Below, piece after piece: positions 29,866 through 48,664 of a DNA stretch of 64,000 bases. A program made the position numbers and the translations under genes. The notes under the pieces were generated by a model. The model was not told the DNA's origin and did not search any database. It was given only the letters and a program-made list of their open reading frames with translations. The stretch spans positions 1,920,001 through 1,984,000 of the forward strand of contig CAXXJV010000001.1 in NCBI GenBank assembly GCA_963663475.2, read 5' to 3'. The stretch comes from Candidatus Cloacimonadales bacterium. GTDB lineage: Bacteria; Cloacimonadota; Cloacimonadia; Cloacimonadales; JAFGVF01. Numbering within the stretch: the first letter of the stretch is position 1; each line of letters starts with the position of its first letter.

Positions 29866-29942
29866 TGAACCCAAGTTTTGCAGTAGAACTTCAATGAAAA
29901 TATTGTTCTATACCTGAAGTTTTTCTGCATTTCTTGGGTTCA
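29866..29942. repeat. MITE-like inverted repeat; contains the empty group II intron target (29938/29939)
   Basis: TGAACCCAAG..TGCAG..AACTTCA / TGAAGTT..CTGCA..CTTGGGTTCA. Confidence 0.7.
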
Positions 29943-30109
29943 TTATCTTATCATTCCTTCCTCTTCCCCTCCTCCTTAATACTCATCTTAATTAAAAATC
30001 GAATAATATTTAGGATGTGTGAGAAGGAGCATGGGAAGACAAAACAAAGAGGATAAAACATAATCCCGAATGGTGCAGTAGAGCTTTACAGAAGAGTGCA
30101 GATTCTTTT

Positions 30110-30970
30110 AGTGTTATCGAGAGCCAAGCTATCTATGCATACCAAAATAGACTAATCTTCTCTTATATCACTAATGATACATTCAAAGTGTTTGATATTG
30201 ATCCTCAAGATTTATCCCAAACTGCAACTTATTCCTTTCCTTCTCAGCGTGGTGTTGCTCTACAAGATTTTATTATCGGAAATAAGTTCTATAACATTCA
30301 GAACTATAATGATAATTTAACTTTAGCTTGCTATGATTTAGATAATGATTTTGCTCAAGTATGGCAGGAAACTATTGCTGAGAATGTTATGAGTGACTTC
30401 GTTATTGAAAAGTTAAATAATAGATTTGTTGTTGCTTATACTCAAGGTACTGAAGGAAGCGAAAGAGTTTCTCTCAGAACTATTAGTTTTTTGGGTAATA
30501 GTGATCAGTATGAAGAGGGCTGTGCTTTACCTTTAAACTTAGAGAGTCAGTACGGTCCTACTATAAGTGTGCTTGATGATAACACAATCTTCGTTAACAG
30601 AATTGAGAATAATTCAGCTGATAATCCTGGTGTTTATTGTGATTTAATAGACCTTAGTTACTTTGTTCCAAATAGTTCTGAAGATGTGTCTCCTTTTACT
30701 TTCACAGCAACAAATTATCCAAATCCTTTTAATCCTGAGACTACTATTTCTTATAATCTTACTAAAGCTGGAGTTACTAAAGTTGAGGTCTTTAATTTGA
30801 AAGGTCAGTTAGTAAAGACTTTAGTTAATGAGGTACAGTCTGCTGGGAATCAAAAGGTTATTTGGAGAGGTAATAATGAGCAAGATAAACAGGTAAGCTC
30901 AGGAATTTATCTGTATAAAATTAAAAGTACAGGTGGTGTTATAAGTGGGAAGATGGTGTTGATGAAATAG
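30110..30970 (+). pseudogene. Start-less 3' fragment of a paralogue of the 941-aa T9SS-CTD protein
   Basis: Aligns to the last ~285 aa of 31508-34321; no signal peptide or RBS; preceded by a MITE-like end at 30065. Confidence 0.85.
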
Positions 30971-31038
30971 GGTCTTGCTTTGCAAGAATTAAAAATGAAA
31001 AATAGAAGAGTAAAACTTTCAGGCGAATTTACACGAAT

Positions 31039-31372
31039 GTAGGGGAGATAGATTTTTTGCCCTTCTATAAAACAAGATAAATACATCTTTCGTCGGACGG
31101 TGGACATTCTGTCTGCCATTCTCTTAAACTCCCCGCTTTAGTACTGAAGGTAGGTTTAAAGAGGGGTGTGGCTTGGTATTTCCAAGACAGGGTGTTTTGT
31201 GAGTCAAGCAGGGATTAATAAAATAATCAGGCTGATTACAGCCTGATGGAAGCAGAGACACTCCACACATAGTTTCGCTCATCTGGAATATGTAAACTAT
31301 GGACTGGTAACACCCTTGCCACCACTCCATAAACCATAAAGCTATGCTATTGGAAAAGGTAGCATACTGATT
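31039..31372. repeat. GC-richer intergenic cluster of short palindromes, including a degenerate REP (31039-31062)
   Basis: GTAGGGGAGATAGATTTTTTGCCC, ATCAGGCTG-ATTA-CAGCCTGAT, CTTGG..CCAAG and TATGCTA..TAGCATA hairpins. Confidence 0.6.
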
Positions 31373-31507
31373 GAATAGTCTTAATTCATTTCAATTAAAA
31401 AATAATACATAATAATTGACAAAAAACGTACTAGAAGTAAAAAACGTACTAGAAGTAAAAAATGTAAATGTAAATAAATATTACAGTTTAACTTATTGGG
31501 AGGAACA

Positions 31508-34321
31508 ATGAGAAAATATCTGCTACTAATAGTTGTAACTTTGCTATGCTCTTTATCAAGCTTATTAGCACAAGTAGTTTGGGATAACTCGTCCTGTGTA
31601 TATAGTGTCGACAATAGGAAAAGTGAATTAATATCAAAACAGGATATTGCAACTGGGTCCTTAGTATTTTATAGACTTAATAATCAACTTGTATTTGAAA
31701 AACTGGATAACTTAGGAAATCCAATCACAGATCAAGTAATAGATTTGAATATACAAGTTAATGAAGAATCGATTTTAACAGTTAGAAAAAGTTATGATAA
31801 CAACTTTTTTATTTATTGGAGAGAAGAAAACTTGCTCAAGATTAAGAAAATCAGTGAAGAAGGCAGTGACCTATGGAATTCGTGTTTAAATATACCAATT
31901 CTAGATTATTCAAATAGGATTATTGATGGAATGCAAATTGTTGATGATGAAGAATCTGTCTATTTATTGGTAAATTACCAGAGTGATGTTTATGAGGAAG
32001 TCTTAGTAAGTTATCAGATTGATGTTATAAATAATAATCCTCAAGAGATTAATCAAAACATTATTTATGAAGCCGAGGGGCTTTCTTCTTTTACTGGAGC
32101 ATTAACAAGTGATGGTATAACTTACATGTGGTTACAAGCTGATGAAGATAAAATTTTCATCAAAATAAGTGAAACCATTCACGAGATAAACGGGCAAGTA
32201 GCTTATTCAACTCAACCTGGATGGAAAGTTAAAGAATGTAAAATTCTTGAGTTAAATGGAGATAAAACTCTTTACTGTTTAGTTGGTAAGTATTATGAGT
32301 CTTATAATGAAGGATTTTCAGACATTTATATCTATAATGAAGTGACAGAAAGTACTAGTGAAGTATTCACTAATCAAATTCTTATAGATGTTCAAAGAAT
32401 CTCTGATAATGAGTTTTTATCTGTGACTATGAGTGATAGTCTTTATTTTACAAGATATGATGCAGTAGGCGATATTATTTCTTCAGTTAGCCAGGAACAC
32501 TATTGTCATGGCTGGAGTCAAGATTGGATTTCTTATCAGCCTTATATCAAAAGTGTTGATTGTAGGCTTGAAAATGGGGAATATAAAATTGCTATTGGTT
32601 TTATCGGTGTGAGCAGTGACATTGTTACTCCTTCTACAGATTATAATTCCAAATTAGGTATTTATAGCTACAATTTAGCAAATGATCAGACATCAGCTGT
32701 TTTGGGTGACCTAGGGAATTTTACAGAAAATAGAATTTCACTTTATGTAAGTATGGGAGATACAAGAGCATCTCTATTGAATAAATGTTATCAAGATAAT
32801 GATTCATCCTACAATCAATATTTTCTGGATTATAATCAAAATTCCCAAGTAAGTCATAATACTTATCAAATTGCATTAACTAGTATTTCATATTTAAGAG
32901 AAATGAACTCTTTTATTTGGAATGGTAACAGTCGTGTAATAATGAAAGTAAATAATTCATTATTGGAAAATGAGATTAATGACATTGGAGAAATAATCAT
33001 GGAAAATTATCAAGAGACAAATTCTCCTATGTATATACTTGAAAATTTTTCAGAGAATAATTATGTACTTCTTTATGCCTATAACTATGATTATTTTGAT
33101 GACTTTGGAGTAACTGAAGTTACATACGATGTAAGAGCTAAGTTTTATAAAGACAACGGTAGCATTAGTATTGAAGATATGCCTTGTGAATCGAATTTGC
33201 AATCATATTTGGATATTGAAGACGGTGATGGTTTATGGATGACTCCTTTTTATTCTTCTAGTTTCCAAATTCGTAGAATAGAAAATGGAGTACTTCAAGA
33301 CCCAATAGATTCCTGGTTTGAGTATGGTAATATACTTATGGTGAAAAATAATTATCTAATCAAGAATGGCGATCATCAGTTTCTTATTACTAAAATTAAC
33401 GATTTCGGTTCTATAACTGAAGGCTGGACTCTTGATGGCTATAGCTTTACAGAAGAGTATGATATCAATATTAGAAATAAAGAGATTTTCAAATATCAAA
33501 ACAGACTAATATTCTCTTATTTAACAGGAGCAAATTATAAAATACTTGATGTTAATCCAGAGGATTTGGCCCAAACAACTAGCTATGTTTTTCCATGTAC
33601 TTATATTAATGAGAAGAATGATTTTATTATCGGGAATAAATTCTATAATATACATAATTATGATTCGCAGTTAACAATATCATGCTATGATATAGATAAC
33701 AATTTTGCAGAAGTATGGCAAGAATCAGTTGCAGAAAATGTTAGGGATTATGATATTAAAGTCGTAAATAATAGATTTGTTGTTGCTTATACTCAAGGTA
33801 CTGAAGGAAGCGAAAGAGTTTATCTCAGAACTATTAGTTTTTTGGGTAATAGTGATCAGTATGAAGAGGGCTATGCTTTACCTTTAAACTTAGATAGTCA
33901 GTACGATCCTACTATAAGTGTGCTTGATGATAACACTATCTTCGTTAACAGAATTGAGAATAATTCAGCTGATAATCCTGGTGTTTATTGTGATTTAATA
34001 GACCTTAGTTACTTTGTTCCAAATAGTTCTGAAGATGTGTCTCCTTTTACTTTCACAGCAACAAATTATCCAAATCCTTTTAATCCTGAGACTACTATTT
34101 CTTATAATCTTACTAAAGCTGGAGTTACTAAAGTTGAGGTCTTTAATTTGAAAGGTCAGTTAGTAAAGACTTTAGTTAATGAGGTACAGTCTGCTGGGAA
34201 TCAAAAGGTTATTTGGAGAGGTAATAATGAGCAAGATAAACAGGTAAGCTCAGGAATTTATCTGTATAAAATTAAAAGTACAGGTGGTGTTATAAGTGGG
34301 AAGATGGTGTTGATGAAATAG
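31508..34321 (+). CDS. Large secreted/surface protein with T9SS type A / FlgD-Ig sorting domain, copy 1
   Basis: Signal peptide MRKYLLL...AQ; C-terminal NYPNPFNPETT...KMVLMK; GGAGG RBS. Confidence 0.9.
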   Translation: MRKYLLLIVVTLLCSLSSLLAQVVWDNSSCVYSVDNRKSELISKQDIATGSLVFYRLNNQLVFEKLDNLGNPITDQVIDLNIQVNEESILTVRKSYDNNFFIYWREENLLKIKKISEEGSDLWNSCLNIPILDYSNRIIDGMQIVDDEESVYLLVNYQSDVYEEVLVSYQIDVINNNPQEINQNIIYEAEGLSSFTGALTSDGITYMWLQADEDKIFIKISETIHEINGQVAYSTQPGWKVKECKILELNGDKTLYCLVGKYYESYNEGFSDIYIYNEVTESTSEVFTNQILIDVQRISDNEFLSVTMSDSLYFTRYDAVGDIISSVSQEHYCHGWSQDWISYQPYIKSVDCRLENGEYKIAIGFIGVSSDIVTPSTDYNSKLGIYSYNLANDQTSAVLGDLGNFTENRISLYVSMGDTRASLLNKCYQDNDSSYNQYFLDYNQNSQVSHNTYQIALTSISYLREMNSFIWNGNSRVIMKVNNSLLENEINDIGEIIMENYQETNSPMYILENFSENNYVLLYAYNYDYFDDFGVTEVTYDVRAKFYKDNGSISIEDMPCESNLQSYLDIEDGDGLWMTPFYSSSFQIRRIENGVLQDPIDSWFEYGNILMVKNNYLIKNGDHQFLITKINDFGSITEGWTLDGYSFTEEYDINIRNKEIFKYQNRLIFSYLTGANYKILDVNPEDLAQTTSYVFPCTYINEKNDFIIGNKFYNIHNYDSQLTISCYDIDNNFAEVWQESVAENVRDYDIKVVNNRFVVAYTQGTEGSERVYLRTISFLGNSDQYEEGYALPLNLDSQYDPTISVLDDNTIFVNRIENNSADNPGVYCDLIDLSYFVPNSSEDVSPFTFTATNYPNPFNPETTISYNLTKAGVTKVEVFNLKGQLVKTLVNEVQSAGNQKVIWRGNNEQDKQVSSGIYLYKIKSTGGVISGKMVLMK

Positions 34322-34483
34322 GGTCTTGCTTTGCAAGAATTAAAAATGAAAAATAAAAGTGGAATAATAAATTCCCTGGATTTGATAGATTCTCTTTTTT
34401 TATTTAAAAATAAATCTATTTTGCAGATAAGAGACAAGAGGTTATATGGATTATTTAAAATATATTTTTCTTTTAAACAAAGA

Positions 34484-35215
34484 GGGTGTATGGCAATACA
34501 CCCCTACAATACCCGGTTTTAGATACGTAATATATCTGTAATAATAAAATGTATTATATATGAGAAATCACAAATACAATCCAGAAATCCATAATCGTCG
34601 TTCTATCAGACTGAAGAAATATGATTATTCCCAGCCTGGACTCTATTTTATTACCCTTTGCACCAAAAACAGAGAATTTCTCTTTGGTGAAATCAATAAT
34701 GAAAAAATGTTGCTGAATGATGCAGGGATTATTGTTATGCAAGAATGGGAGAAAACGCAACAAATAAGAAAAAATATTAAATTAGGTGAATATGTGATAA
34801 TGCCTAATCATTTTCATGCAATCATACAAATAGAATATCAAATCATGACATCTTCTTCTGAAAATAACAAGAAATTCCAATCACCAACCCAAACCATCGG
34901 TGCAATTATGCGAGGATTTAAAGGTTCAACAACATTAAAAATAAATAAAAACCTACCAGCCCGTAATCATGGTAGGGGCGTATTGCCATACGCCAGAAAT
35001 AATAATAATTCAGTCTGGCAAAGAAATTATTGGGAACACATCATCAGAACAGAAATCGAATATACCAAAATCACCGAATATATTATTAACAATCCTCTGT
35101 GTTGGGATAATGATATATTAAATGGGGGAGATGGGAATGTTGTCTTAGAATCTGAAACAGGTTATAATCAGGAAATCTGGATGATTTAGTTGTAGGAGCG
35201 AAACATCTTTCGCCC
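34484..35215 (+). mobile_element. RAYT locus 1 with GTAG-type REPs at 34484-34507 (inverted), 34972-34995 (inside the CDS) and 35192-35215
   Basis: GTAGGGGTGTATTGCCATACACCC (reverse complement), GTAGGGGCGTATTGCCATACGCC and GTAGGAGCGAAACATCTTTCGCCC. Confidence 0.88.
34560..35189 (+). CDS. REP-associated tyrosine transposase (RAYT, Y1 HUH)
   Basis: RRSIRLKKYDYS, YFITLCT, IMPNHFH, WQRNYWEHIIR, YIINNP. Confidence 0.93.
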   Translation: MRNHKYNPEIHNRRSIRLKKYDYSQPGLYFITLCTKNREFLFGEINNEKMLLNDAGIIVMQEWEKTQQIRKNIKLGEYVIMPNHFHAIIQIEYQIMTSSSENNKKFQSPTQTIGAIMRGFKGSTTLKINKNLPARNHGRGVLPYARNNNNSVWQRNYWEHIIRTEIEYTKITEYIINNPLCWDNDILNGGDGNVVLESETGYNQEIWMI

Positions 35216-35474
35216 AGAAAGATTATTTTATTATAATTATCAAATATGTTATTGACATATATTAATTAATAAATATTAATTGTAATTTATAATATTTAGT
35301 AATATTATGTAAAATATTATTATAATTATTGCTTTAATAATTAAATATCCAGAGGTAGTTTTTATGAAATTACGATTTCACAATGAGAGGAAGAAAATTA
35401 TACTTGATCCTTCTAGATCAGCGATAAGTTACTGTAAAATTGTATTTAAAATTTAAACAAGGAGAAAATATTAC

Positions 35475-35657
35475 GTAAAATTCTTAGCATCATTGAATAA
35501 CGACGAATATGCCGCACTGAGTAAAAAATTATGGGGAATTCAACAACATAAGTGTTTCATTTGTGAAGAAGATATTGATTTAGAACTTAATAAAACAGAT
35601 ATAGATCACATAGAACCATTAGCAAAAAAAGGACTAGCTACAGAGAAACTTGCTTAA
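35475..35657 (+). pseudogene. N-terminal fragment of an HNH endonuclease
   Basis: KFLASL...QQHKCFICEEDIDL...DIDHIEPLAKKG then stop; AAGGAG RBS upstream but the start codon is lost. Confidence 0.7.
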
Positions 35658-36169
35658 TCAGTGAAGATGTATCTATTTCTGTATTGGTTATGTTAGTTAG
35701 TGATATTCCAGATCTTATAGTAGCAAAGGATTTATTCTCCATACTACTTAGTCCGACATCATTTATCTTACAAACTCCTATTTATATGTTTAAAATCCTC
35801 CACCTCGATGTTATAACTATTCTCACTTTGATGAATAGAAAGTAATGATATTCCATGGTTATAAAGTTGTAAAAACATCATACAGATATTTAGGATAATT
35901 TTACTATAAGTTAAAAAGAAATCAAAGCTGATGTTGTTCTTTTCAGATTCTATATTTTAAACTAGTGTGAAATTTTCAGAATAGTAAATATTAACCTCAA
36001 ATTAGATATAATTGATTATAAAAAAAGTGACAGTAGGAATGTATATTAGCTAAAATAAACTAAATTAAAACTTTTATGTAATATTATAGTAATATCACAT
36101 AATAAATCTTGACAAAAAAATAAATAAGTAATATATAGTATATTGTAACTAAATTAAAAGGAGAAAATT

Positions 36170-37051
36170 ATGTTTTTTAAACGTATAATCCCAATTTTAG
36201 GGATATTACTAGTAATCGCAGGTTGTAACCAAGATATAGTAGGGGGGCATTCTACTAAAAACAGAGAAGTAAGAGCTTTTGATGAAAGTAATGTAGGTTA
36301 TGCCTACAATATTCACGAAGAAAATGTCAAGTCTATTTGTACTTGTCCTGAAGTAACAGCAATGATCAAGTCAAAAAAGAGCAATGGTGAAACTGAATTA
36401 AATGAAAAAGATTTTAATGTAATAATTGATGCAGCTAAGCAAATGCCATACTATGATTCAACTTTACAAATGGGAATCTTATCAATGATGGATTTCACAA
36501 AAAGCACACTATTCAATGAAAATAATGGACAATATTCCATGAAATCATTTGAACAAATTAATGATGACTTGAATACCTTGATTGTATCAAATGATAATAT
36601 CAATAAAATGTGGCAAATAGAATTAAAGGCTAGAGCTAACTTTTACGTTAACACTGAGAAGTATAGTCCAGAAAAAGCCATTGTTATGTTTTATAAAGAA
36701 ATTAGTGTAATAAAGTATTTAAATTTCAATAATAACTATGAAGTATCTGCTGCTGAAAACTATTTTGGTGTGGCAAAAAACTCTTTAGATATATGGGAAA
36801 AATACCAGACTTGCTGGGGGACGTTTAATCCAACAATCCCTTTGTTAGCTTGGAGCACAGGAAGAGCTGATGCTGTAGGAGCTTTAACAGGGACATATGT
36901 AGGTGGTTTGATTGGAGGAGCGGTTGGAACAATAGTTTTACCTGGTGGAGGTACTGTAGCAGGCGGTGGGGTTGGAATTGGAGCAGGTGGAACTTTAGGA
37001 TGCGTGTTATTCTCTAGTGTATATAAAATTGCCCAGTTAGCTAAATATTAA
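36170..37051 (+). CDS. Lipoprotein with C-terminal glycine-zipper segment (putative pro-toxin A)
   Basis: Lipobox IAG-C; C-terminal GALTGTYVGGLIGGAVG...GGGVGIGAGGTLG. Confidence 0.75.
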   Translation: MFFKRIIPILGILLVIAGCNQDIVGGHSTKNREVRAFDESNVGYAYNIHEENVKSICTCPEVTAMIKSKKSNGETELNEKDFNVIIDAAKQMPYYDSTLQMGILSMMDFTKSTLFNENNGQYSMKSFEQINDDLNTLIVSNDNINKMWQIELKARANFYVNTEKYSPEKAIVMFYKEISVIKYLNFNNNYEVSAAENYFGVAKNSLDIWEKYQTCWGTFNPTIPLLAWSTGRADAVGALTGTYVGGLIGGAVGTIVLPGGGTVAGGGVGIGAGGTLGCVLFSSVYKIAQLAKY

Positions 37052-37064
37052 TAGAGGAATAATA

Positions 37065-37907
37065 ATGAAATTTCAAATTATAATAATCCAAATATTTATT
37101 GTCAGTTTAATATTAAGTGGATGTTCTAAAAGTCAAGATGATACTAATACCAAAATAGTAAATCCTAAAGGAGGGTACAGTTGCTCTCAAGATAATATAT
37201 TTAAATATGACAATATACATACTGAATTTGTTGAAGATGCTTGTCTAGATGACGAAGTAGTAAAAGTTATGGCTGATGCTGATAGAGAGGGTATTTTGTT
37301 GGAAAATTACTTATCTGTTGAAGAAATAATTAAACAGAAATATTACAAGATGTTTGATCTAGATGAGATTTACCTGACTGATGAACTATTTAACAACTCA
37401 GTATCAATAAACTTAAATATTTCGAATGGATACGTTCATAAATTTAATGTGCTACAGATTAGAGACTGTATAGCTAGTAGAAGAACTAATATAAAAGAAC
37501 TAGATGAACTAATTGATAAGTTTGTCCTATATACTGACGAATTTATAAAGGAATATCCTATAAATAGCGATTTAGCCACTAATAACTTCTATAATAAAAT
37601 TCTCTTACTACAGAAAAAGGAATATGAAACTCAAGAAGGATGCTTCTTTGCTGAAGTTCTTGTTGGTACTGTTAAAAGTTCGTATAGATTTAGATCCTCC
37701 TATAGTGACTATTGGGGATATTGTACTCCTTCGCTTGCCGCTGGAGACTGGGGTTTTTGGGGAGACGTAGCTGGAATTGTTCTTGGGGCCGGTATTGGAG
37801 GTGCTTCAGGTGGAATTGTTGGAGCATTAGTCGGAATTTCTAAGCTTGGTCCTTTACTCTCAACAGTTAGTGCAGGCATTGGAGCTATTGTAACAGAAGA
37901 ATTTTAA
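37065..37907 (+). CDS. Lipoprotein with C-terminal glycine-zipper segment (putative pro-toxin B)
   Basis: Lipobox LSG-C; C-terminal GIVLGAGIGGASGGIVGALVG. Confidence 0.75.
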   Translation: MKFQIIIIQIFIVSLILSGCSKSQDDTNTKIVNPKGGYSCSQDNIFKYDNIHTEFVEDACLDDEVVKVMADADREGILLENYLSVEEIIKQKYYKMFDLDEIYLTDELFNNSVSINLNISNGYVHKFNVLQIRDCIASRRTNIKELDELIDKFVLYTDEFIKEYPINSDLATNNFYNKILLLQKKEYETQEGCFFAEVLVGTVKSSYRFRSSYSDYWGYCTPSLAAGDWGFWGDVAGIVLGAGIGGASGGIVGALVGISKLGPLLSTVSAGIGAIVTEEF

Positions 37908-37908
37908 T

Positions 37909-38274
37909 ATGAAAAACTTCTTTAAGTACCTAATTCACTTTATTTTTCAAATACTTGTTGTCTTATTAATATGGCATAAGCAATATAGTGATATTGGAGA
38001 TATGTTGAATGCTCTTTTTTATTTTCCATTATATGCATACCCTTTATCATTAACGATTGGTAGATGGTCTGACTTTAAAATAATGAATAAAAGATATTAT
38101 GACAAATATCTACTTAGGGATATATCATTGAATTTTATCCTTGGAGGTCTATATTTACCAATACACTTTTTAATAAGTAATGAATTTTTTATTATATATT
38201 TCATTTTAGTATTGGTTTTTAAAAATATTTTGGATATAAGAAATGTAAGAACATTAATCAGAGTAGATGAATAA
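37909..38274 (+). CDS. Small multi-pass membrane protein (putative immunity protein)
   Basis: 121 aa with ~4 hydrophobic segments, 1 bp after the preceding stop. Confidence 0.6.
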   Translation: MKNFFKYLIHFIFQILVVLLIWHKQYSDIGDMLNALFYFPLYAYPLSLTIGRWSDFKIMNKRYYDKYLLRDISLNFILGGLYLPIHFLISNEFFIIYFILVLVFKNILDIRNVRTLIRVDE

Positions 38275-38369
38275 CTAGATTGTTAGGTAATGGGATAATC
38301 ATTACCTAACTTTTTTTTGATATTCTATTATGATAAAAGTATTTATCAAATTATTTTTTCAAGTATTTT

Positions 38370-38609
38370 GGTCGTATTGCCATACGCCCAAAATAATAAT
38401 AATTCAGTCTGGCAAAGAAATTATTGGGAACATATCATCAGAACAGAAATAGAATATACCAAAATCTCCCAATATATAATTAACAATCCTCTGTGTTGGG
38501 ATAATGATAAATTAAATGGGGGAGATGGGAATGTGGTTTTAGAAGATGAAATAGAGTATAAATTAGAAATATGGATGGTATGATTGTAGGGGCGAAACAT
38601 CTTTCGCCC
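38370..38609 (+). pseudogene. Displaced 3' third of a RAYT gene with its downstream REP (38586-38609)
   Basis: Homology to RAYT starts inside the internal REP (CGTATTGCCATACGCCC); the C-terminus matches the 60774 copy. Confidence 0.88.
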
Positions 38610-38636
38610 AGAAAGGAAATATTGCAGTCATTTGGG

Positions 38637-40541
38637 GTGCGTCACGAGGTGGTGTGCCGTCAACTGGTGAAAATCCAGTCTGGTTAATTTTCTGTTCAAC
38701 CAGAAGTGAAAAAGACAGGCTTGTTCAGTAATGGCAAGTCTGAAGCTCTTTGAATCGGTAAGTAAGCCGTAGCGAAAGCGAACAGGTAGCTTCGTTAGAT
38801 AATTGTAATCGGTCAATCTTTCCCAATGGATGAAACCTGCTATTTGATAGGAAGTAACAGAAATATGCACTATCAAAGATTACTGGAGTTATAACTGATG
38901 GCGTGCTTATAAATGATTGCACACTAAACGTGAGAGAGCCTATTTAATAAGAGATGACAACTCTAAATGGATTTCTATAAGACGGAGTCGAAGTGAAATT
39001 CAGTTATTTAGGCAGTCGGAGATGCCCATAGTAGTGATGATATTTGAGACAACATAACTCAAAAGTAGCGAAGGGGCATTACTTCAAAGAAATTTACAAG
39101 ATAAGGAGAAAGTTGTGATTGATGAAAATCTAACAAACAAACGAAAAGCTGATTTATCAGCAGAGGAAAGAGTTCGAATTTTTCAACGTAAATTATATTC
39201 TAAAGCCAAACAAGAAAAGGATTTTCGTTTTTATGTACTGTATGATAAGTTAACAGTGGGATATTTTCTAAGTGAAGCTTGGAGAAGGGTAAAGTTAAAT
39301 AATGGGATTGCTGGATATGATAAAAAGAGTTTTTCTTATATTGAAGAATGTGGAATAACAGACTTTCTTTTTGAGATTCAACAAGAACTAAAAGACGAAA
39401 CTTATAAACCATCTCCAATACTACGAGTATATATTCCTAAAGCAAATGGTAAAATGAGGCCATTAGGTATTCCGACCATAAAAGATAGAGTAGTTCAAAT
39501 GTGTTGCAAGCTAATAATTGAACCAATCTTTGAAGCAGATTTTGAGGATTGTTCACATGGTTTCAGACCAAAGCGTTCAGCCCATGGAGCTATTAAAGAA
39601 ATAAAGTCTAACCTTAAAGCTGGAAAAACAGAAGTATATGATGCAGATTTGTCTGGTTACTTCGATAATATTCCACATGATAAACTAATGTATCTTGTGG
39701 AAAGAAGAATAACAGATAAAAGGATATTAAAGCTAATTAGAATGTGGCTAAAAACACCATATTTTGAGAAGAACAAATTGCACAAGAGTAAAAAGGGAAC
39801 ACCTCAAGGAGGCGTTATTTCCCCTTTACTGGCAAATATATACTTAAATCTTGTTGATAAAGCTATCAATAGGGAAGATGGATTTTTTCGCTAAAAGAGG
39901 CATAAAAATAGTACGTTATGCTGATGACTTTATCTTAATGGGAAAGCAAATACCCCAAGAGTGCTTATCGTATTTGCACAGAATGCTGGAAAGAATGGAG
40001 TTAACTGTTAATCTAGAAAAAACGAAACACCTGAATGCAACAAAACTATCTTTTGACTTTTTAGGTTTTACTTTTAGGTTTGATAAATCATTTTACAACT
40101 CGTATGGTTATTACTGGAATGTGATTCCAAGTAAAAAGAGTGTCAAAAAGTTTAAGGCAAATATTAAGAATTGTCTTATGAATAATGGACATTCATCAAA
40201 CTATACGATAGTAAAGAAGCTCAATCCAATATTAAGAGGTTGGACTAACTATTTTACAATACCTAAAGTAAGCTACCCTGCAAAGGCTAAAGATAGTGTT
40301 AATTCTTATCTCTTTTTTAGTCTAAAGAGGTATTATAAGCGCAAGAGTCAAAGGAGCTGTAAGCTTTATCGTCAAAATGCTCATGATAAGTTAATTAAAC
40401 ATTATGGTTTATATAACTTAGCATACAGGTCCTCTTGACAAACTTGTGAATGCTTAGAATGAACTTTGTCGGTAAGCCGTGTGCGGGAAAACCGCATGCA
40501 CGGTTTGAAGAGGGGGGCAGGGAATCCTGCCTCTACTCTAC
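38637..40541 (+). mobile_element. Group II intron (En-less IEP, AGC-triad domain V)
   Basis: 5' GTGCG; DV AGCCGTGTGCGGGAAAACCGCATGCACGGTT; DVI ending CTCTACTCTAC; putative EBS1 CCCAA at 38822-38826 complementary to exon TTGGG. Confidence 0.92.
39115..40438 (+). pseudogene. ltrA: Intron-encoded reverse transcriptase/maturase, frameshifted in a T6 run near 39885
   Basis: RPLGIPTIKDR, GTPQGGVISPLLANIYL, RYADDF, FDFLGF, maturase LRGWTNYF; removing one T restores GFFAKRG. Confidence 0.9.
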
Positions 40542-40710
40542 TTCATTATCTTATCATTCCTTCCTCTTCCCCTCCTCCTTAATACTCATCTTAATTAAAA
40601 ATCGAATAATATTTAGGATGAGTGAGAAGGAGCATGGGAAGACAAAACAAAGAGGATAAAACATAATCCCGAATGGTGCAGTAGAGCTTTACAGAAGAGT
40701 GCAGATTCTT

Positions 40711-41568
40711 AGTGTTATCGAGAGCCAAGCTATCTATGCATACCAAAATAGACTAATCTTCTCTTATATCACTAATGATACATTCAAAGTGTTTGATATT
40801 GATCCTCAAGATTTATCCCAAACTGCAACTTATTCCTTTCCTTCTCAGCGTGGTGTTGCTCAACAAGATTTTATTATCGGGAATAAATTCTATAATATAC
40901 ATAATTATGATTCGCAGATAACAATATCATGCTATGATATAGATAACAATTTTGCAGAAGTATGGCAAGAATCAGTTGCAGAAAATGTTAGGGATTATGA
41001 TATTAAAGTCGTAAATAATAGATTTGTTGTTGCTTATACTCAAGGTACTGAAGGAAGCGAAAGAGTTTATCTCAGAACTATTAGTTTTTTGGGTAATAGT
41101 GATCAGTATGAAGAGGGCTATGCTTTACCTTTAAACTTAGATAGTCAGTACGATCCTACTATAAGTGTGCTTGATGATAACACTATCTTCGTTAACAGAA
41201 TTGAGAATAATTCAGCTGATAATCCTGGTGTTTATTGTGATTTAATAGACCTTAGTTACTTTGTTCCAAATAACACTGAAAATGTGTCACCTCTTACTTT
41301 CACAGCAACAAATTATCCAAATCCTTTTAACCCTGAGACTACTATTTCTTATAATCTTACTAAAGCTGGAGTTACTAAAGTTGAGGTCTTTAATTTGAAA
41401 GGTCAGTTAGTAAAGACTTTAGTTAATGAAGTACAAGCTCAAGGTAATCAAAAGGTAATTTGGAAAGGCAATAATAATCAAGATAAACAGGTAAGCTCAG
41501 GAATTTATCTGTATAAAATTAAAAGTACAGGTGGTGTTATAAGTGGGAAGATGGTGTTGATGAAATAG
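40711..41568 (+). pseudogene. Start-less 3' fragment of the T9SS-CTD protein paralogue, copy 2
   Basis: Same as 30110-30970, but from DFIIG onward it matches the adjacent full gene. Confidence 0.85.
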
Positions 41569-41887
41569 GGTCTTGCTTTGCAAGAATTAAAAATGAAAAA
41601 TAGAAGAGTAAAACTTTCAGGCGAATTTACACGAATGTAGGGGAGATAGATTTTTTGCCCTTCTATAAAACAAGATAAATACATCTTTCGTCGGACGGTG
41701 GACATTCTGTCTGCCATTCTCTTAAACTCCCCGCTTTAGTACTGAAGGTAGGTTTAAAGAGGGGTGTGGCTTGGTATTTCCAAGACAGGGTGTTTTGTGA
41801 GTCAAGCAGGGATTAATTGTCAATAGCAGTTTAAATTGGTACAGTTTTGGCAGTTTAAAATGGTACACTATTGTAAATCATATTTCC

Positions 41888-42616
41888 TTATAGTTTTCCT
41901 TTCATTCTATAACTATTTCCATCTATTAGAACTGTTTCTGCATGATGAACTAATCTATCTACTATAGCAGTAGTTATTACATTATCTCCAAAGGATTCTC
42001 CCCACTCTTGGAATAGCCTATTAGAGGTAATGATAATAGACCTATATTCATATAACTCATTTATTAGCTTAAAAAATAAACTCGCATTTACTGCCTTAAT
42101 AGGAAGATAGCCTATCTCATCAATAATAATAAGATCATTTTTTACTAACTTTGAAATCCATTTTTTGAAGTTATTTTCTACATTAGCAATAATCATTTCA
42201 TCAATTAGGTCATTCATATTGTAAAAAATAACTTTATATCCTTTTAAGATAGCTTCATATCCTAAAGCTATAGATATATGAGTTTTACCTACACCAGGAG
42301 GACCCATTAATATTTTGTTTTCTCTGTTATCTATCCAAGTAAAGTCCTTCCACTCAGTAATCATTCTTTTAGTTATTGAATGCTGATATTTAAAATCAAA
42401 ATCATCAAAACTTTTCAAAAGAGGAAATTTTGACCTTCTAATCTGTAAATTTATCATCGTTTGATTTCTACTATTGCATTCATTATCAATTACATATGAA
42501 AGAAAATTCATATAAGATAACTGATTATCTTGTGCATATTTAAGATATGATTCTAAATTATTAATAGTATGCCTGCATCTTAGTCTAAATAGATTTTTCT
42601 TTAATGTTTCGATCAT
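41888..42616 (-). CDS. istB: IS21 helper ATPase IstB
   Basis: GPPGVGKTH, IIDEIGY, ITSNR, DRLVHH, GNSYR. Confidence 0.95.
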   Translation of the reverse strand: MIETLKKNLFRLRCRHTINNLESYLKYAQDNQLSYMNFLSYVIDNECNSRNQTMINLQIRRSKFPLLKSFDDFDFKYQHSITKRMITEWKDFTWIDNRENKILMGPPGVGKTHISIALGYEAILKGYKVIFYNMNDLIDEMIIANVENNFKKWISKLVKNDLIIIDEIGYLPIKAVNASLFFKLINELYEYRSIIITSNRLFQEWGESFGDNVITTAIVDRLVHHAETVLIDGNSYRMKGKL

Positions 42617-44097
42617 TTTTTTACCACCTTATTATAAATTGATAAATCTCTCTGTATAACTGATTTTTTTGTTTCTATTATCCCATTGACTTGATTTTGA
42701 TAGTTAGCAGATAACTTATTGCCTTTTATCTCTTCTTTGACTATAGACTCTATCTTTGTTGCTTTTATATCTTCTAATTCTAGTGCTTTAGAAATTATGT
42801 TTGACCAATTTAAGTATTTATTTTTATTATACATTTTTAAAAATGCTAATAGTTGCTCTCTGGGATTTCTGTGATTATGTGCTATGAGTAAATTTAATAA
42901 AAGGATTATCTTGTCATTATTGGGGAATAGTGAGCAAATATCTTCCTTTATATTATTAATTGTTTTCGAGTAGTCTATGTAATGACATTGAGATATGATA
43001 GGTTTTGTTCTTTCTCTGGAAATCCTATGAGATGCAACTTTTTTTCTACTATTCCTATCTATTATTTCTAAAGTGTCTTCATTTTCTTTAACTATAACTA
43101 TCTTTTGTTGATAGATATAAGGAACTGAATATTTGTTACCATTCCATGAGATAAGACCTGTTTTATCTACTTTTCGTGTCTCTGCAATATTCAGGTTATA
43201 TCTTCTTAATAGTTTTTCTTCTTCTTTAAACATTACTATAGGTCTTTCTCTAAGCGTACTGTGGATACGATTATTTACTTCTTCTAACCAGCTTTTTGAT
43301 TTCAACTTAACTTCAGATAAACTAGTAAATACTTCACCATCAAGAAAATCATACTTAACTTCTTGAACTTGTCTTTCTACCAACCCTTTACTTTCAGGAT
43401 CATAACCTTCACAAACATAAGGACTTATTGTTAGATTATTCATAAATTGAAAAAACTTATTATTATAAGTTACTTCTCGATAAATCTCCTTTATAACGAC
43501 TAGTTTTGTTTGATCATAAACCATTGTCTCTGGGATATATCCAAAATATTCAAAGCAATCTTTATGGGCTTGGATGAAGTCTTGAGTCTTATAAGGTCTT
43601 GTTTGAAAATGTACATATTTCATTCGTGAATAGCAATAGCTAAACACACAAAAGTATATTTTTAACTTGCTCTTATCAGATAAATAGATATTATACTCTC
43701 CGGGATCAACCTGCATCTGATTTCCTGGTTCATAATTGACAACTCGATAATAACGCTTAGTTGGTTGTATTAAATTATTTTTTATTTTTTTTGAAAAATT
43801 AAAAAAAGCTCTTTGTTTTACAGGTAATTTTCCATGCTGTTTGGATAATTTACGATATAATTTACTTAATCGCATATTAGGAAATTTTGTTAAATGTTTG
43901 CTAATTTCTTCCCTGTAAATTTCGAGCTTACTTGTTCGATTGACTTTCATTAAAGTTTTTTCTACGGTTTCAATGTCTTTTTGTAAGTAACCCATAACTG
44001 TTGTTTTAGAGATACTTAACTGTTCTGCTATTTCTCTTATACTCTTGCCATTTTCTCTTAATACTCTTATTGCGTGATACACTTGGACTCCTTTCAT
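42613..44097 (-). CDS. istA: IS21 transposase IstA
   Basis: N-terminal HTH, PGNQMQVD, YDQTK, ESKGLVE, YSVP. Confidence 0.95.
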   Translation of the reverse strand: MKGVQVYHAIRVLRENGKSIREIAEQLSISKTTVMGYLQKDIETVEKTLMKVNRTSKLEIYREEISKHLTKFPNMRLSKLYRKLSKQHGKLPVKQRAFFNFSKKIKNNLIQPTKRYYRVVNYEPGNQMQVDPGEYNIYLSDKSKLKIYFCVFSYCYSRMKYVHFQTRPYKTQDFIQAHKDCFEYFGYIPETMVYDQTKLVVIKEIYREVTYNNKFFQFMNNLTISPYVCEGYDPESKGLVERQVQEVKYDFLDGEVFTSLSEVKLKSKSWLEEVNNRIHSTLRERPIVMFKEEEKLLRRYNLNIAETRKVDKTGLISWNGNKYSVPYIYQQKIVIVKENEDTLEIIDRNSRKKVASHRISRERTKPIISQCHYIDYSKTINNIKEDICSLFPNNDKIILLLNLLIAHNHRNPREQLLAFLKMYNKNKYLNWSNIISKALELEDIKATKIESIVKEEIKGNKLSANYQNQVNGIIETKKSVIQRDLSIYNKVVKK

Positions 44098-44632
44098 ATT
44101 GTCTCCTAGATTTCTCTATTTTTTTATCTAGGAAACTGTACCAGATTAAACTGCCATTTGTGTACCAATTTAAAATGCCATCTACACCCTTCTATAAAAC
44201 AAGATAAATACATCTTTCGTCGGACGGTGGACATTCTGTCTGCCATTCTCTTAAACTCCCCGCTTTAGTACTGAAGGTAGGTTTAAAGAGGGGTGGCTTG
44301 GTATTTCCAAGACGGGGTGTTTTGTGAGTCAAGCAGGGATTAATAAAATAATCAGGCTGATTACAGCCTGATGGAAGCAGAGACACTCCACACATAGTTT
44401 CGCTCATCTGGAATATGTAAACTATGGACTGGTAACACCCTTGCCACCACTCCATAAACCATAAAGCTATGCTATTGGAAAAGGTAGCATACTGATTGAA
44501 TAGTCTTAATTCATTTCAATTAAAAAATAATACATAATAATTGACAAAAAACGTACTAGAAGTAAAAAAAGTACTAGAAGTAAAAAATGTAAATGTAAAT
44601 AAATATTACAGTTTAACTTATTGGGAGGAACA

Positions 44633-47446
44633 ATGAGAAAATATCTGCTACTAATAGTTGTAACTTTGCTATGCTCTTTATCAAGCTTATTAGCACAAGT
44701 AGTTTGGGATAACTCGTCCTGTGTATATAGTGTCGACAATAGGAAAAGTGAATTAATATCAAAACAGGATATTGCAACTGGGTCCTTAGTATTTTATAGA
44801 CTTAATAATCAACTTGTATTTGAAAAACTGGATAACTTAGGAAATCCAATCACAGATCAAGTAATAGATTTGAATATACAAGTTAATGAAGAATCGATTT
44901 TAACAGTTAGAAAAAGTTATGATAACAACTTTTTTATTTATTGGAGAGAAGAAAACTTGCTCAAGATTAAGAAAATCAGTGAAGAAGGCAGTGACCTATG
45001 GAATTCGTGTTTAAATATACCAATTCTAGATTATTCAAATAGGATTATTGATGGAATGCAAATTGTTGATGATGAAGAATCTGTCTATTTATTGGTAAAT
45101 TACCAGAGTGATGTTTATGAGGAAGTCTTAGTAAGTTATCAGATTGATGTTATAAATAATAATCCTCAAGAGATTAATCAAAACATTATTTATGAAGCAG
45201 AGGGGCTTTCTTCTTTTACTGGAGCATTAACAAGTGATGGTATAACTTACATGTGGTTACAAGCTGATGAAGATAAAATTTTCATCAAAATAAGTGAAAC
45301 CATTCACGAGATAAACGGGCAAGTAGCTTATTCAACTCAACCTGGATGGAAAGTTAAAGAATGTAAAATTCTTGAGTTAAATGGAGATAAAACTCTTTAC
45401 TGTTTAGTTGGTAAGTATTATGAGTCTTATAATGAAGGATTTTCAGACATTTATATCTATAATGAAGTGACAGAAAGTACTAGTGAAGTATTCACTAATC
45501 AAATTCTTATAGATGTTCAAAGAATCTCTGATAATGAGTTTTTATCTGTGACTATGAGTGATAGTCTTTATTTTACAAGATATGATGCAGTAGGCGATAT
45601 TATTTCTTCAGTTAGCCAGGAACACTATTGTCATGGCTGGAGTCAAGATTGGATTTCTTATCAGCCTTATATCAAAAGTGTTGATTGTAGGCTTGAAAAT
45701 GGGGAATATAAAATTGCTATTGGTTTTATCGGTGTGAGCAGTGACATTGTTACTCCTTCTACAGATTATAATTCCAAATTAGGTATTTATAGCTACAATT
45801 TAGCAAATGATCAGACATCAGCTGTTTTGGGTGACCTAGGGAATTTTACAGAAAATAGAATTTCACTTTATGTATGTATGGGAGATACAAGAGCATCTCT
45901 ATTGAATAAATGTTATCAAGATAATGATTCATCCTACAATCAATATTTTCTGGATTATAATCAAAATTCCCAAGTAAGTCATAATACTTATCAAATTGCA
46001 TTAACTAGTATTTCATATTTAAGAGAAATGAACTCTTTTATTTGGAATGGTAACAGTCGTGTAATAATGAAAGTAAATAATTCATTATTGGAAAATGAGA
46101 TTAATGACATTGGAGAAATAATCATGGAAAATTATCAAGAGACAAATTCTCCTATGTATATACTTGAAAATTTTTCAGAGAATAATTATGTACTTCTTTA
46201 TGCCTATAACTATGATTATTTTGATGACTTTGGAGTAACTGAAGTTACATACGATGTAAGAGCTAAGTTTTATAAAGACAACGGTAGCATTAGTATTGAA
46301 GATATGCCTTGTGAATCGAATTTGCAATCATATTTGGATATTGAAGACGGTGATGGTTTATGGATGACTCCTTTTTATTCTTCTAGTTTCCAAATTCGTA
46401 GAATAGAAAATGGAGTACTTCAAGACCCAATAGATTCCTGGTTTGAGTATGGTAATATACTTATGGTGAAAAATAATTATCTAATCAAGAATGGCGATCA
46501 TCAGTTTCTTATTACTAAAATTAACGATTTCGGTTCTATAACTGAAGGCTGGACTCTTGATGGCTATAGCTTTACAGAAGAGTATGATATCAATATTAGA
46601 AATAAAGAGATTTTCAAATATCAAAACAGACTAATATTCTCTTATTTAACAGGAGCAAATTATAAAATACTTGATGTTAATCCAGAGGATTTGGCCCAAA
46701 CAACTAGCTATGTTTTTCCATGTACTTATATTAATGAGAAAAATGATTTTATTATCGGGAATAAATTCTATAATATACATAATTATGATTCGCAGATAAC
46801 AATATCATGCTATGATATAGATAACAATTTTGCAGAAGTATGGCAAGAATCAGTTGCAGAAAATGTTAGGGATTATGATATTAAAGTCGTAAATAATAGA
46901 TTTGTTGTTGCTTATACTCAAGGTACTGAAGGAAGCGAAAGAGTTTATCTCAGAACTATTAGTTTTTTGGGTAATAGTGATCAGTATGAAGAGGGCTATG
47001 CTTTACCTTTAAACTTAGATAGTCAGTACGATCCTACTATAAGTGTGCTTGATGATAACACTATCTTCGTTAACAGAATTGAGAATAATTCAGCTGATAA
47101 TCCTGGTGTTTATTGTGATTTAATAGACCTTAGTTACTTTGTTCCAAATAACACTGAAAATGTGTCACCTCTTACTTTCACAGCAACAAATTATCCAAAT
47201 CCTTTTAACCCTGAGACTACTATTTCTTATAATCTTACTAAAGCTGGAGTTACTAAAGTTGAGGTCTTTAATTTGAAAGGTCAGTTAGTAAAGACTTTAG
47301 TTAATGAAGTACAAGCTCAAGGTAATCAAAAGGTAATTTGGAAAGGCAATAATAATCAAGATAAACAGGTAAGCTCAGGAATTTATCTGTATAAAATTAA
47401 AAGTACAGGTGGTGTTATAAGTGGGAAGATGGTGTTGATGAAATAG
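44633..47446 (+). CDS. Large secreted/surface protein with T9SS type A / FlgD-Ig sorting domain, copy 2
   Basis: Near-identical to 31508-34321; differences concentrated near the CTD. Confidence 0.9.
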   Translation: MRKYLLLIVVTLLCSLSSLLAQVVWDNSSCVYSVDNRKSELISKQDIATGSLVFYRLNNQLVFEKLDNLGNPITDQVIDLNIQVNEESILTVRKSYDNNFFIYWREENLLKIKKISEEGSDLWNSCLNIPILDYSNRIIDGMQIVDDEESVYLLVNYQSDVYEEVLVSYQIDVINNNPQEINQNIIYEAEGLSSFTGALTSDGITYMWLQADEDKIFIKISETIHEINGQVAYSTQPGWKVKECKILELNGDKTLYCLVGKYYESYNEGFSDIYIYNEVTESTSEVFTNQILIDVQRISDNEFLSVTMSDSLYFTRYDAVGDIISSVSQEHYCHGWSQDWISYQPYIKSVDCRLENGEYKIAIGFIGVSSDIVTPSTDYNSKLGIYSYNLANDQTSAVLGDLGNFTENRISLYVCMGDTRASLLNKCYQDNDSSYNQYFLDYNQNSQVSHNTYQIALTSISYLREMNSFIWNGNSRVIMKVNNSLLENEINDIGEIIMENYQETNSPMYILENFSENNYVLLYAYNYDYFDDFGVTEVTYDVRAKFYKDNGSISIEDMPCESNLQSYLDIEDGDGLWMTPFYSSSFQIRRIENGVLQDPIDSWFEYGNILMVKNNYLIKNGDHQFLITKINDFGSITEGWTLDGYSFTEEYDINIRNKEIFKYQNRLIFSYLTGANYKILDVNPEDLAQTTSYVFPCTYINEKNDFIIGNKFYNIHNYDSQITISCYDIDNNFAEVWQESVAENVRDYDIKVVNNRFVVAYTQGTEGSERVYLRTISFLGNSDQYEEGYALPLNLDSQYDPTISVLDDNTIFVNRIENNSADNPGVYCDLIDLSYFVPNNTENVSPLTFTATNYPNPFNPETTISYNLTKAGVTKVEVFNLKGQLVKTLVNEVQAQGNQKVIWKGNNNQDKQVSSGIYLYKIKSTGGVISGKMVLMK

Positions 47447-47608
47447 GGTCTTGCTTTGCAAGAATTAAAAATGAAAAATAAAAGTGGAATAATAAATTCC
47501 CTGGATTTGATAGATTCTCTTTTTTTATTTAAAAATAAATCTATTTTGCAGATAAGAGACAAGAGGTTATATGGATTATTTAAAATATATTTTTCTTTTA
47601 AACAAAGA

Positions 47609-48340
47609 GGGTGTATGGCAATACACCCCTACAATACCCGGTTTTAGATACGTAATATATCTGTAATAATAAAATGTATTATATATGAGAAATCACAAAT
47701 ACAATCCAGAAATCCATAATCGTCGTTCTATCAGACTGAAGAAATATGATTATTCCCAGCCTGGACTCTATTTTATTACCCTTTGCACCAAAAACAGAGA
47801 ATTTCTCTTTGGTGAAATCAATAATGAAAAAATGTTGCTGAATGATGCAGGGGTTATTGTTATGCAAGAATGGGAGAAAACGCAACAAATAAGAAAAAAT
47901 ATTAAATTAGGTGAATATGTGATAATGCCTAATCATTTTCATGCAATCATACAAATAGAATATCAAATCATGACATCTTCTTCTGAAAATAACAAGAAAT
48001 TCCAATCACCAACCCAAACCATCGGTGCAATTATGCGAGGATTTAAAGGTTCAACAACATTAAAAATAAATAAAAACCTACCAGCCCGTAATCATGGTAG
48101 GGGCGTATTGCCATACGCCCAAAATAATAATAATTCAGTCTGGCAAAGAAATTATTGGGAACACATCATCAGAACAGAAATCGAATATACCAAAATCTCA
48201 CAATATATAATTAACAATCCTCTGTGTTGGGATAATGATAAATTAAATGGGGGAGATGGGAATGCTGTTTTGGAAGATGAAATAGATTATAATTTAAAAT
48301 TATGGATGGTATGATTGTAGGGGCGAAACATCTTTCGCCC
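47609..48340 (+). mobile_element. RAYT locus 2 with REPs at 47609-47632, 48097-48120 and 48317-48340
   Basis: Same layout as locus 1, without the cassette. Confidence 0.88.
47685..48314 (+). CDS. REP-associated tyrosine transposase (RAYT), copy 2
   Basis: HUH and catalytic Tyr motifs as in copy 1. Confidence 0.93.
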   Translation: MRNHKYNPEIHNRRSIRLKKYDYSQPGLYFITLCTKNREFLFGEINNEKMLLNDAGVIVMQEWEKTQQIRKNIKLGEYVIMPNHFHAIIQIEYQIMTSSSENNKKFQSPTQTIGAIMRGFKGSTTLKINKNLPARNHGRGVLPYAQNNNNSVWQRNYWEHIIRTEIEYTKISQYIINNPLCWDNDKLNGGDGNAVLEDEIDYNLKLWMV

Positions 48341-48664
48341 AGAAAGGAAATATTGCAGTCATTTGGGTGCTCTACTCTCTCCAAAATCATAAAGTTTTAA
48401 TTATTTGATAAATAGAAGAATTAAACCTCTTAAATTTGTGACACAGGTTTTTCCATACCAATTAGTATGAAAAAAGTGAAGTCACAATTTCCATTACTGC
48501 AATAATAATCTACTTAAATATCAATATAATAAATACTTAGAAGATGTCTCAATTATTAATCAGTTTATTAATATTTTTAAGTAAGTAATCTACGTCTCCC
48601 TATCATTTGCTGTTTATGACTAATTTTACATTGAACCTAAAAACTGAAAAATTATGATGTACAT

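Follow-up and report, generated by a model that had tools for sequence, protein, structure and literature searches.

A 5.3-kb block is tandemly duplicated in the genome of a Candidatus Cloacimonadales bacterium, and a group II intron is located at the join of the two copies. The locus lies in a stretch of 64,000 nucleotides (C1:1920001-1984000), referred to below as the window, of a 3.30-Mb genome with 33% G+C that is assembled into 2 contigs with 0.8% contamination. The duplicated block includes an IS200-like transposase gene and the genes for two proteins, secreted or surface-located, that bear type IX secretion sorting domains. Genes with such domains point to the Fibrobacterota-Chlorobiota-Bacteroidota (FCB) group. 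The sequences on the two sides of the intron belong to two distinct sites, and both of these sites are uninterrupted in the same genome. With moderate confidence, this layout is attributed to two DNA molecules that carried the intron at the two different sites and underwent homologous recombination within it.

The features of the locus are listed below. L and R denote the left and right flanks, s is the sequence that opens a unit, and e is the module that closes it.

up to 29938: L, left flank
29870-29938, plus strand: imperfect long hairpin (from folding) on the L side of empty site 1, located 3' of the gene at 29239-29841; its 3' arm ends ..CTGCATTTCTTGGG
29934-29939, plus strand: empty target site 1, TTGGG/T, with its junction at 29938/29939
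29939-35221, plus strand: unit 1 core, with sorting-domain genes at 30188-30970 and 31496-34321 and an IS200-like/Y1 transposase gene at 34560-35189
35222-38369, plus strand: unique segment found in unit 1 only and single in the genome, with open reading frames (ORFs) at 36170-37051 and 37065-37907 that have no Pfam match
38370-38636, plus strand: e1, the 5'-exon module of 267 bp, made up of a 3' transposase-gene fragment and a hairpin; it ends ...CAGTCATTTGGG
38637-40541, plus strand: group II intron of 1905 nt, GTGCG...CTAC, the single copy in the genome
38822-38827, plus strand: exon-binding site 1 (EBS1), CCCAAU, in a domain I terminal loop; its partner is UUGGG of either 5' exon
39115-39894 and 39851-40438, plus strand: intron-encoded protein in two frames, reverse transcriptase plus maturase, no endonuclease domain
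40472-40541, plus strand: intron domains V/VI with the bulged branch A, from the RF00029 alignment
40542-48367, plus strand: unit 2, with sorting-domain genes at 40699-41568 and 44621-47446, a transposase gene at 47685-48314 and an IS21 element inside
41818-44186, minus strand: IS21-family element found in unit 2 only, with istA at 42613-44097 and istB at 41888-42616, between 160-bp direct repeats at 41658-41817 and 44187-44344
48363-48368, plus strand: empty target site 2, TTGGG/T, with its junction at 48367/48368
from 48368: R, right flank
60608-61753, plus strand: third copy of the transposase element, e/R uninterrupted, the nearest relative of the 5'-exon module

Both limits of homology between the units fall on the ends of the intron. 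In a self-BLAST of the window, 29939-31219 corresponds to 40542-41817 and 31060-35221 to 44187-48346, while 38370-38640 matches both 48101-48370 and 61190-61459. The 3' homology begins exactly at 40542, equivalent to 29939 and the first base past the intron. The 5' homology stops at 38636, equivalent to 48367, with an ambiguity of 4 bases because the intron starts with GTGC and R starts with TGC. Direct reading gives ...CTGCATTTCTTGGG/TTCATTATC for empty site 1, ...CAGTCATTTGGG/TGCTC for empty site 2 and ...CAGTCATTTGGG/intron/TTCATTATC for the occupied site. An earlier note on this DNA had assigned the 5' exon of the intron to the site uninterrupted at 48367/48368 and the 3' exon to the site uninterrupted at 29938/29939. 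Self-BLAST and direct reading agree on both assignments, and direct reading also confirms that both empty sites read TTGGG/T, as the note had stated.

The L/s junction is ancestral, since L and the first 170 bp of s are contiguous, at 97.7% identity, in G003, a relative of the same genus. The hexamer TTGGGT occurs in the genome at a frequency of 2.2e-4 per strand position; it is therefore unlikely (~7e-4) that L ends in TTGGG right before s by chance. At the opposite end, the e module runs into R unbroken at 48367/48368, at 61456/61457 and in a fourth copy outside the window, and R-type homology extends ~300 bp past each e/R junction. Because e/R is continuous in three other copies, this arrangement is the ancestral and normal one, and the unit does not stop where some other element stops. 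Just upstream of site 1, at 29925-29935, a 7-nt patch reads CATTTCTTGGG here and CCTTACATGGG in G003 (locus L023 ~9394-9404). Nearly every base of the patch differs, within surroundings that are ~98% identical, and pairing with EBS1 at position -5 is possible with the version of this genome and not with that of G003.

Each unit encodes a protein of 260/289 amino acids and one of 941 amino acids, both with type IX secretion sorting domains, and a 209-amino-acid Y1 transposase. The private structural features are the 3.1-kb unique segment of unit 1 and the IS21 element of unit 2. After removal of 35222-38615 from unit 1, and of IS21 and one 158-bp repeat from unit 2, the units measure 5304 and 5299 bp, so their lengths do reconcile without the "cassette" and IS21, as had been proposed. 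The cassette itself is not a simple insertion: the unique segment at 35222-38369 is bounded by two diverged copies of the 5'-exon module, that is, of the 3' module of the transposase gene, which are 86% identical. An alignment of the two units contains 119 differing columns, the core is ~99.8% identical, and only 5 differences fall within 30939-33938. The remaining ones are concentrated at two kinds of place: the segments that encode the sorting domains, and the transposase gene over its final ~250 bp. The sorting-domain segment is present four times (30266-31008, 33620-34359, 40867-41606 and 46745-47484) with mosaic identities, and the third and fourth copies are 99.9% identical despite belonging to different genes. 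This pattern points to exchange of sequence among the four segments by gene conversion.

A layout of this kind could also be created by an assembler that chains two haplotypes or two molecules through the intron. Sequencing runs bearing the sequence come from isolates of one organism and from aquatic, wastewater, landfill, bioreactor and manure metagenomes. The junctions were checked in Logan short-word contigs of the isolate runs X21 and X22, which derive from one sample. These runs are possibly the assembly's own data, and the check is therefore a test of the assembler rather than of the biology. In each run a single contig (38607/8-40571) contains the whole intron and 29-30 nt of e and s with 0 differences. 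These contigs end where the multi-copy flanks start, and no branching occurs at the intron boundaries, where any alternative junction on either side would have interrupted the contig. The depth of the intron is 187.7 in X21 and 67.2 in X22, compared with 169.4 and 64.8 for a segment private to unit 1. A mixture of two haplotypes, each with the intron, predicts an intron depth equal to the sum, whereas parity with DNA specific to unit 1 is observed in both runs. Since the contigs cross both junctions unbranched and the intron depth is close to that of the unit-1-private segment, the join of two strain haplotypes feared in the earlier note is disfavoured. The small number of contigs in the genome, its low contamination and the different private insertions of the two units point in the same direction. 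In favour of an artefact, a tandem array and a chromosome accompanied by a circle look alike in short-read graphs, and in a third run from another sample (X24) the intron contig aligned just from 38749. Taken together, an assembly artefact is regarded as extremely unlikely.

The intron is a complete, bona fide bacterial ORF-containing group II intron. Its domain I matches Rfam RF02003 with 62.3 bits (gathering score 49), and 40472-40541 matches RF00029 with 56 bits (gathering score 40), with a bulged A in the aligned domain VI. The 5' end, GTGCG at 38637, fits the conserved GUGYG. The protein, encoded in domain IV, contains RVT_1 (E 3e-26) and GIIM (E 3e-12) domains, and since just 25 residues follow GIIM, it has no endonuclease domain. 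A screen of 41 related genomes for the intron and its alleles recovered 6 full copies at 98% identity in G002, 2 at 92% in G008 and 1 at 72% in G005, as well as 2 truncated copies that retain the 3' part; the intron-bearing relatives fall in the same genus and family. The truncated copies, which consist of the 3' part only, are in G002 and G004. A plasmid collection yielded no carrier plasmid: of 100 matching records, none reaches 80% coverage of the intron, and the highest coverage is 22%, at 68% identity.

Recognition of the 5' exon can be followed across these lineages. In the 6 copies of G002 and the 2 of G008, EBS1 is CCCAGA and the 5' exons end in TCTGGG, TTTGGG, ATTGGG or TCCGGG; in G005, EBS1 is AGGGGA and the 5' exon ends in ACCCCT. 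Positions -1 to -5 form five standard pairs between EBS1 and intron-binding site 1 (IBS1) in 9 of the 10 full-length copies. EBS1 thus covaries with IBS1 across three intron lineages. In a consensus fold of domain I from four lineages, 18 of the 93 predicted pairs show compensatory changes, and EBS1 CCCAAU lies in an 8-nt terminal loop. The suggestion that folding domain I would confirm the exon-binding sites is therefore borne out for EBS1/IBS1 by the loop, the compensated pairs and the covariation. It does not succeed for EBS3, which could not be located by covariation among the compared copies because every 3' exon compared starts with T: this holds for 11 of 11 in the relatives (8 full-length in G002 and G008, 1 in G005 and 2 truncated) and also for s and R. 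Neither the exon comparison nor the domain I consensus fold contains a convincing covarying EBS2. The loop AUGCA, 3' of EBS1, was considered as EBS2 and rejected, as it is the same in the G005 intron, whose 5' exon has no TGCAT. EBS1 variants at 38826/38827 are present in a metagenome run. In the metagenome run X1, CCCAGA-type introns occupy canonical sites, and a sequence closely related to the unique segment is present at depth 5-7; the run is uninformative on the junctions of the window locus.

The relatives also reveal the preferred target of the family. A ~70-nt repeat with the consensus ...GCTAAAAGAATCTGCACTCTTCTCTAAAGCTCTAYTGCACCATTYGGG/TTAAA in this genome gives 160 BLAST hits, and the 8 full-length copies in G002 and G008 are inserted at ...TGCA(Y)TAT(Y)TGGG/TT(T/A)AA, which corresponds to the tail of this repeat. 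As judged from sequence, the 3' end of the repeat is the apparent natural homing site of the intron family. Its target rule can accordingly be described as base pairing between an EBS1 of ~5 nt and the tail of a repeat that is abundant in the genome. The tails of e (TATTGCAGTCATTTGGG) and L (CTGCATTTCTTGGG) are degenerate copies of the repeat tail, and this resemblance makes both empty sites credible targets. Site 1 is found at the 3' foot of a long hairpin, and a composite stem precedes site 2 by 5 nt; the sites in relatives have no uniform hairpin, and a simple terminator scan at site 1 found none.

The abundance of this repeat also bears on the possibility that the duplication came first, by illegitimate recombination at short repeat tails (shared TTGGGT), which would have produced an intron-free e/s junction into which the intron homed later. 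Both ends of the duplication are indeed at hairpin feet in tails of the same repeat family, comparable to duplications mediated by repetitive extragenic palindromic (REP) sequences, and the hybrid e/s site offers both an IBS1 that fits EBS1 and the T at +1. However, the exact sharing between the two sites amounts to just 6 bases. Moreover, the genome contains 158 matches to the tail motif CAC(C/T)AT(T/C)(T/C)GGG, 42 of them ending CAC(C/T)ATTTGGG, and these offer many equivalent targets. The presence of the sole intron copy exactly on the join would be a coincidence of ~1 in 100. This order of events is considered very unlikely.

Several smaller observations concern the repeat and its relation to the intron end. 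An example of the ~70-nt repeat in the window is found at 30061-30111 on the minus strand, with the repeat ending ...GCTCTAYTGCACCATTYGGG. The tail motif GCTCTACT..AC resembles the last bases of the intron, GCCTCTACTCTAC, and R opens at 48368 with the same motif. The similarity of the start of R (TGCTCTACTCT) to the intron end (TGCCTCTACTCTAC) had raised the idea that R carries an intron scar; this idea was rejected because the same motif is in the repeat tail (..AAAGCTCTACTGCAC.., with variants TCTACTCTAC). Short relics of the intron 3' end, followed by TTAAAG or TTTAA, are located at L025 1985-2030 and at C1 ~1604051 and ~887299 (minus strand), and some such relics are perfect hairpins (GTAGAGTAGAGGCAGGGAATCCTGCCTCTACTCTAC). 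Among species-representative genomes, a 24-mer of the intron is found in one record, as a 36-nt perfect hairpin whose 3' half consists of the last 26 nt of the intron and is followed by TTAAAG. This match was dismissed as an intron allele and is a hairpin relic. Relics and truncated copies may represent abortive 5'-truncated insertions with snap-back.

In the favoured and most economical explanation, homologous recombination within the intron, one molecule would have carried the intron at L/s (29938/29939) and another would have carried it at e/R (48367/48368). A crossover inside the 1.9-kb intron would join "L-s...e-intron" to "intron-s...e-R"; for a partner that came in as an imported fragment, a second exchange in the flanks would be added. 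The product would contain the intron at the join only, with both outer sites empty. Such a crossover accounts for the base-exact coincidence of both homology breakpoints with the ends of the intron. Had both copies been on one chromosome or on its sister, one outer intron or more would remain in the product, unlike what is observed. A join-only intron needs two single-site molecules, integration of a circle into an intron-free chromosome, or later precise loss of the outer copies; with the parental sites empty, an exchange between non-identical chromosomes is thus implied. Sister chromosomes are the less probable partners; more likely, the exchange took place between two strains that were closely related, or between an intron-free chromosome and an excised circle made up of unit plus intron. 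Non-sister partners are favoured because the units have several private structural features yet a core difference of only ~0.2%. Exchange between closely related strains would make the private features, namely the unique segment and its diverged module, the IS21 element and the variants of the sorting domain, pre-existing polymorphisms on a 99.8%-identical backbone, and it is preferred because no string of events inside an unstable array is needed.

The main single-lineage alternative begins with one chromosome that carried the intron at both sites. Unequal sister exchange would give L-I-s..e-I-s..e-I-R (I, intron) or a two-copy form, and the outer copies would then be lost precisely. Ordinary recombination between direct repeats would suffice for the first step, and the reverse transcriptase, which is under purifying selection, could in principle support precise loss mediated by complementary DNA (cDNA). 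The 7-nt patch upstream of site 1, unlike G003, might be a trace of past events. The difficulty lies in the second step, in which the intron must be deleted precisely once or twice, with perfect empty sites left behind, while site 1 is colinear with the intron-free site of G003 at the junction itself. No intermediate was found in the 41 genomes or in the isolate contigs. This course of events is judged unlikely.

Several results weigh against recombination between two occupied molecules. The genome contains one intron copy, so that both parental insertions are hypothetical. The earlier note had advised looking for alleles with the intron at either single site: neither L-intron-s nor e-intron-R is present in the 41 related genomes or in the isolate contigs. 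Two scans of metagenome contigs, one for the 3' end of the intron lineage and one for an e- or L-type tail joined to the intron 5' end, each returned 0 matches. All of these sets are small. The long-range tandem order of the units comes from the assembly, as short-word contigs cannot show order. Over 267 positions, e1 has 5 differences to the third copy (61190-61456) and 11 to the unit 2 module (48101-48367). The 5' exon is the e module found at the end of unit 2, as the earlier note had held, but not a plain recent copy of it. Because e1 is nearer to the third copy while the cores differ by 0.2%, the right end of unit 1 is more complex than a single crossover would leave it. Finally, none of the 6 G002 copies has a comparable duplicated 3' flank when the flanks are searched against their own genome, so duplication is not a regular property of the intron. 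Four of these six flanks are unique apart from short repeats, two of them without any other match; of the others, one is unique over its first ~160-170 nt, beyond which it runs into a dispersed repeat, and one belongs entirely to a multi-copy element.

Recombination through the intron between two chromosomes, which the earlier note had put forward, is the one route found to produce the observed layout in few steps, and it is partly supported. The exact breakpoints and the credibility of both sites as targets stand in its favour; against it, no occupied parental allele was found in the genomes and contigs searched. The anatomy of the locus, the target rules and the existence of both junctions are shown, and we infer the two occupied alleles and the crossover. 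Nothing supports the intron-mediated trans-splicing or circle route that had been offered beside it.

The IS21-family copy in unit 2 is relevant to a further type of explanation. IS21 elements encode istA, a DDE transposase, and istB, an ATPase, and generate target duplications of 4-8 bp. The copy in the window has an IstB_IS21 match with E 1e-74 and rve/Mu-transposase domains. Elsewhere in the genome, 6 of the 7 other copies are flanked by a 5-bp target duplication, and the seventh lies in a local repeat. The unit 2 copy has no 5-bp duplication and is located between the 160-bp direct repeats, which differ at 3 positions and correspond to a segment that is single in unit 1. Its topology is that of the intron on a smaller scale: the element occupies the join of a tandem duplication while the parental sites are empty.

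This parallel is one of the arguments for a one-step join during intron mobility. Either incomplete reverse splicing or cDNA synthesis at L/s at a replication fork would have been resolved onto the e end of another duplex, or a TTGGG microhomology exchange would have taken place between the L-intron junction and e/R. Group II introns without an endonuclease rely on replication intermediates, and the protein encoded here has no endonuclease domain; in addition, both 5' sides end in the IBS1 sequence. However, the IS21 parallel may be a coincidence, the sequence gives nothing that separates such a join from ordinary recombination, and we know of no documented reaction of this kind. A one-step join in general appears unlikely. 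The specific form in which the duplication was made at a replication fork by the intron's own mobility machinery has a very slender chance of being correct. In that form, the intron RNA would have become attached to s on one sister duplex; on the other, its 5' end or cDNA would have been linked to a DNA terminus at e whose last bases are TTGGG. If true, endonuclease-less group II introns would directly generate tandem gene duplications, and the IS21 copy at the join of the 160-bp duplication would be the transposon counterpart at this locus.

The right end of unit 1, with its succession of module, unique segment and module, is reshaped. The 3' module of the transposase comprises the last ~267 bp of the IS200-like gene and starts at the hairpin GGGGCGTATTGCCATACGCCC. 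Five versions that are 86-98% alike are located at 34976-35221, 38370-38636, 48101-48367, 61190-61456 and C1:1905593-1905859, and two of them stand alone, without the 5' part of the transposase gene. The first 600 bp of the three full transposase genes have 0-1 differences. On these comparisons, the 3' module seems to move, exchange or diversify independently.

The reverse transcriptase gene of the intron is split by a +1 shift at GGA TTT TTT CGC TAA (39880-39894). The site is identical in 9 of 9 full-length copies of three species, and the isolate contigs have no indel there. The G005 intron, 72% identical, has one continuous frame of 461 codons. A slip from UUU to UUC yields ...EDGFF/AKRGIKIVRYADD, which aligns without gaps to the G005 protein, and CGC is the fifth rarest sense codon in the long ORFs of the genome, at 1.1 per 1000. 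Between the window copy and a G008 copy, the ratio of nonsynonymous to synonymous change (pN/pS) is 0.06 in the upstream part. For the part downstream, its +1 frame gives 0.11 and the other frames give 0.85-2.2. The low values in both halves imply that both have been translated since before the window and G008 lineages split. Programmed +1 frameshifting is therefore the likely mode of expression of this group II intron protein, as predicted from sequence. The arrangement is similar to +1 frameshifting of the Ty1/prfB type in its slippery P-site codon (UUU to UUC), followed by the rare codon CGC and then a stop; here, in contrast, the shift is in the reverse transcriptase gene of a group II intron. 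A full-text search found no report, by title or abstract, of +1 frameshifting in such a gene. If confirmed, the frameshift would add a recoding-based layer of control to group II intron biology, and its presence in the reverse transcriptase gene of an actively spreading intron may be the more original result from the window.

Outside the duplication, neighbouring ORFs at 51535-54674 contain the coupler, methylase and C-terminal specificity domains of a Type ISP restriction-modification system, apparently broken into several frames. They are flanked by a DDE transposase (49236-50711) and a phage-type integrase (54992-55591).

Among known introns, the closest likeness is to class C and to RmInt1-type class D introns, which also have a short protein with reverse transcriptase and maturase only and a small domain I (~295 nt here). 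Introns of these classes without an endonuclease likewise use an IBS1 of ~5 nt and a T at +1, and insert at the 3' foot of a stem-loop or repeat, or directly after it. Bacterial class C introns have no EBS2/IBS2, and their target is a stem-loop followed by a short IBS1. In contrast to the CGC of class C domain V, the intron described here has AGC, and its target is the tail of a specific ~70-nt repeat rather than generic terminators.

With respect to the duplication, a literature search returned nothing directly relevant by title or abstract on intron-mediated tandem duplication or on Cloacimonas introns. In enteric bacteria, tandem duplications form at dispersed repeats, with insertion sequence (IS), rrn and REP elements as join points. 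The present case resembles these duplications in having portable homology at the join of two direct copies. The classic type, however, keeps the repeat at the outer ends, whereas here the outer sites are empty, so that either two different parental molecules or precise loss is called for.

The lactococcal relaxase genes offer a further parallel, of DNA-level exon shuffling between group II intron copies. One article (PMC7947834) describes intron-interrupted genes whose two exons come from different lineages, and the authors' explanation there is homologous recombination between intron copies; it cites Leclercq et al. 2011 for Wolbachia. The two cases share intron flanks of different origin and a crossover within near-identical intron copies. 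They differ in that the sites here are 5.3 kb apart at one locus in direct order, which leads to a tandem gene duplication and not to a chimeric gene, and in that both parental sites are seen empty on the same molecule. The event is of a known kind, in which the homology of a mobile element drives duplication. It is not unprecedented, and the window is a further, natural example, with a group II intron as the portable homology that duplicates host genes for a pair of secreted or surface proteins.

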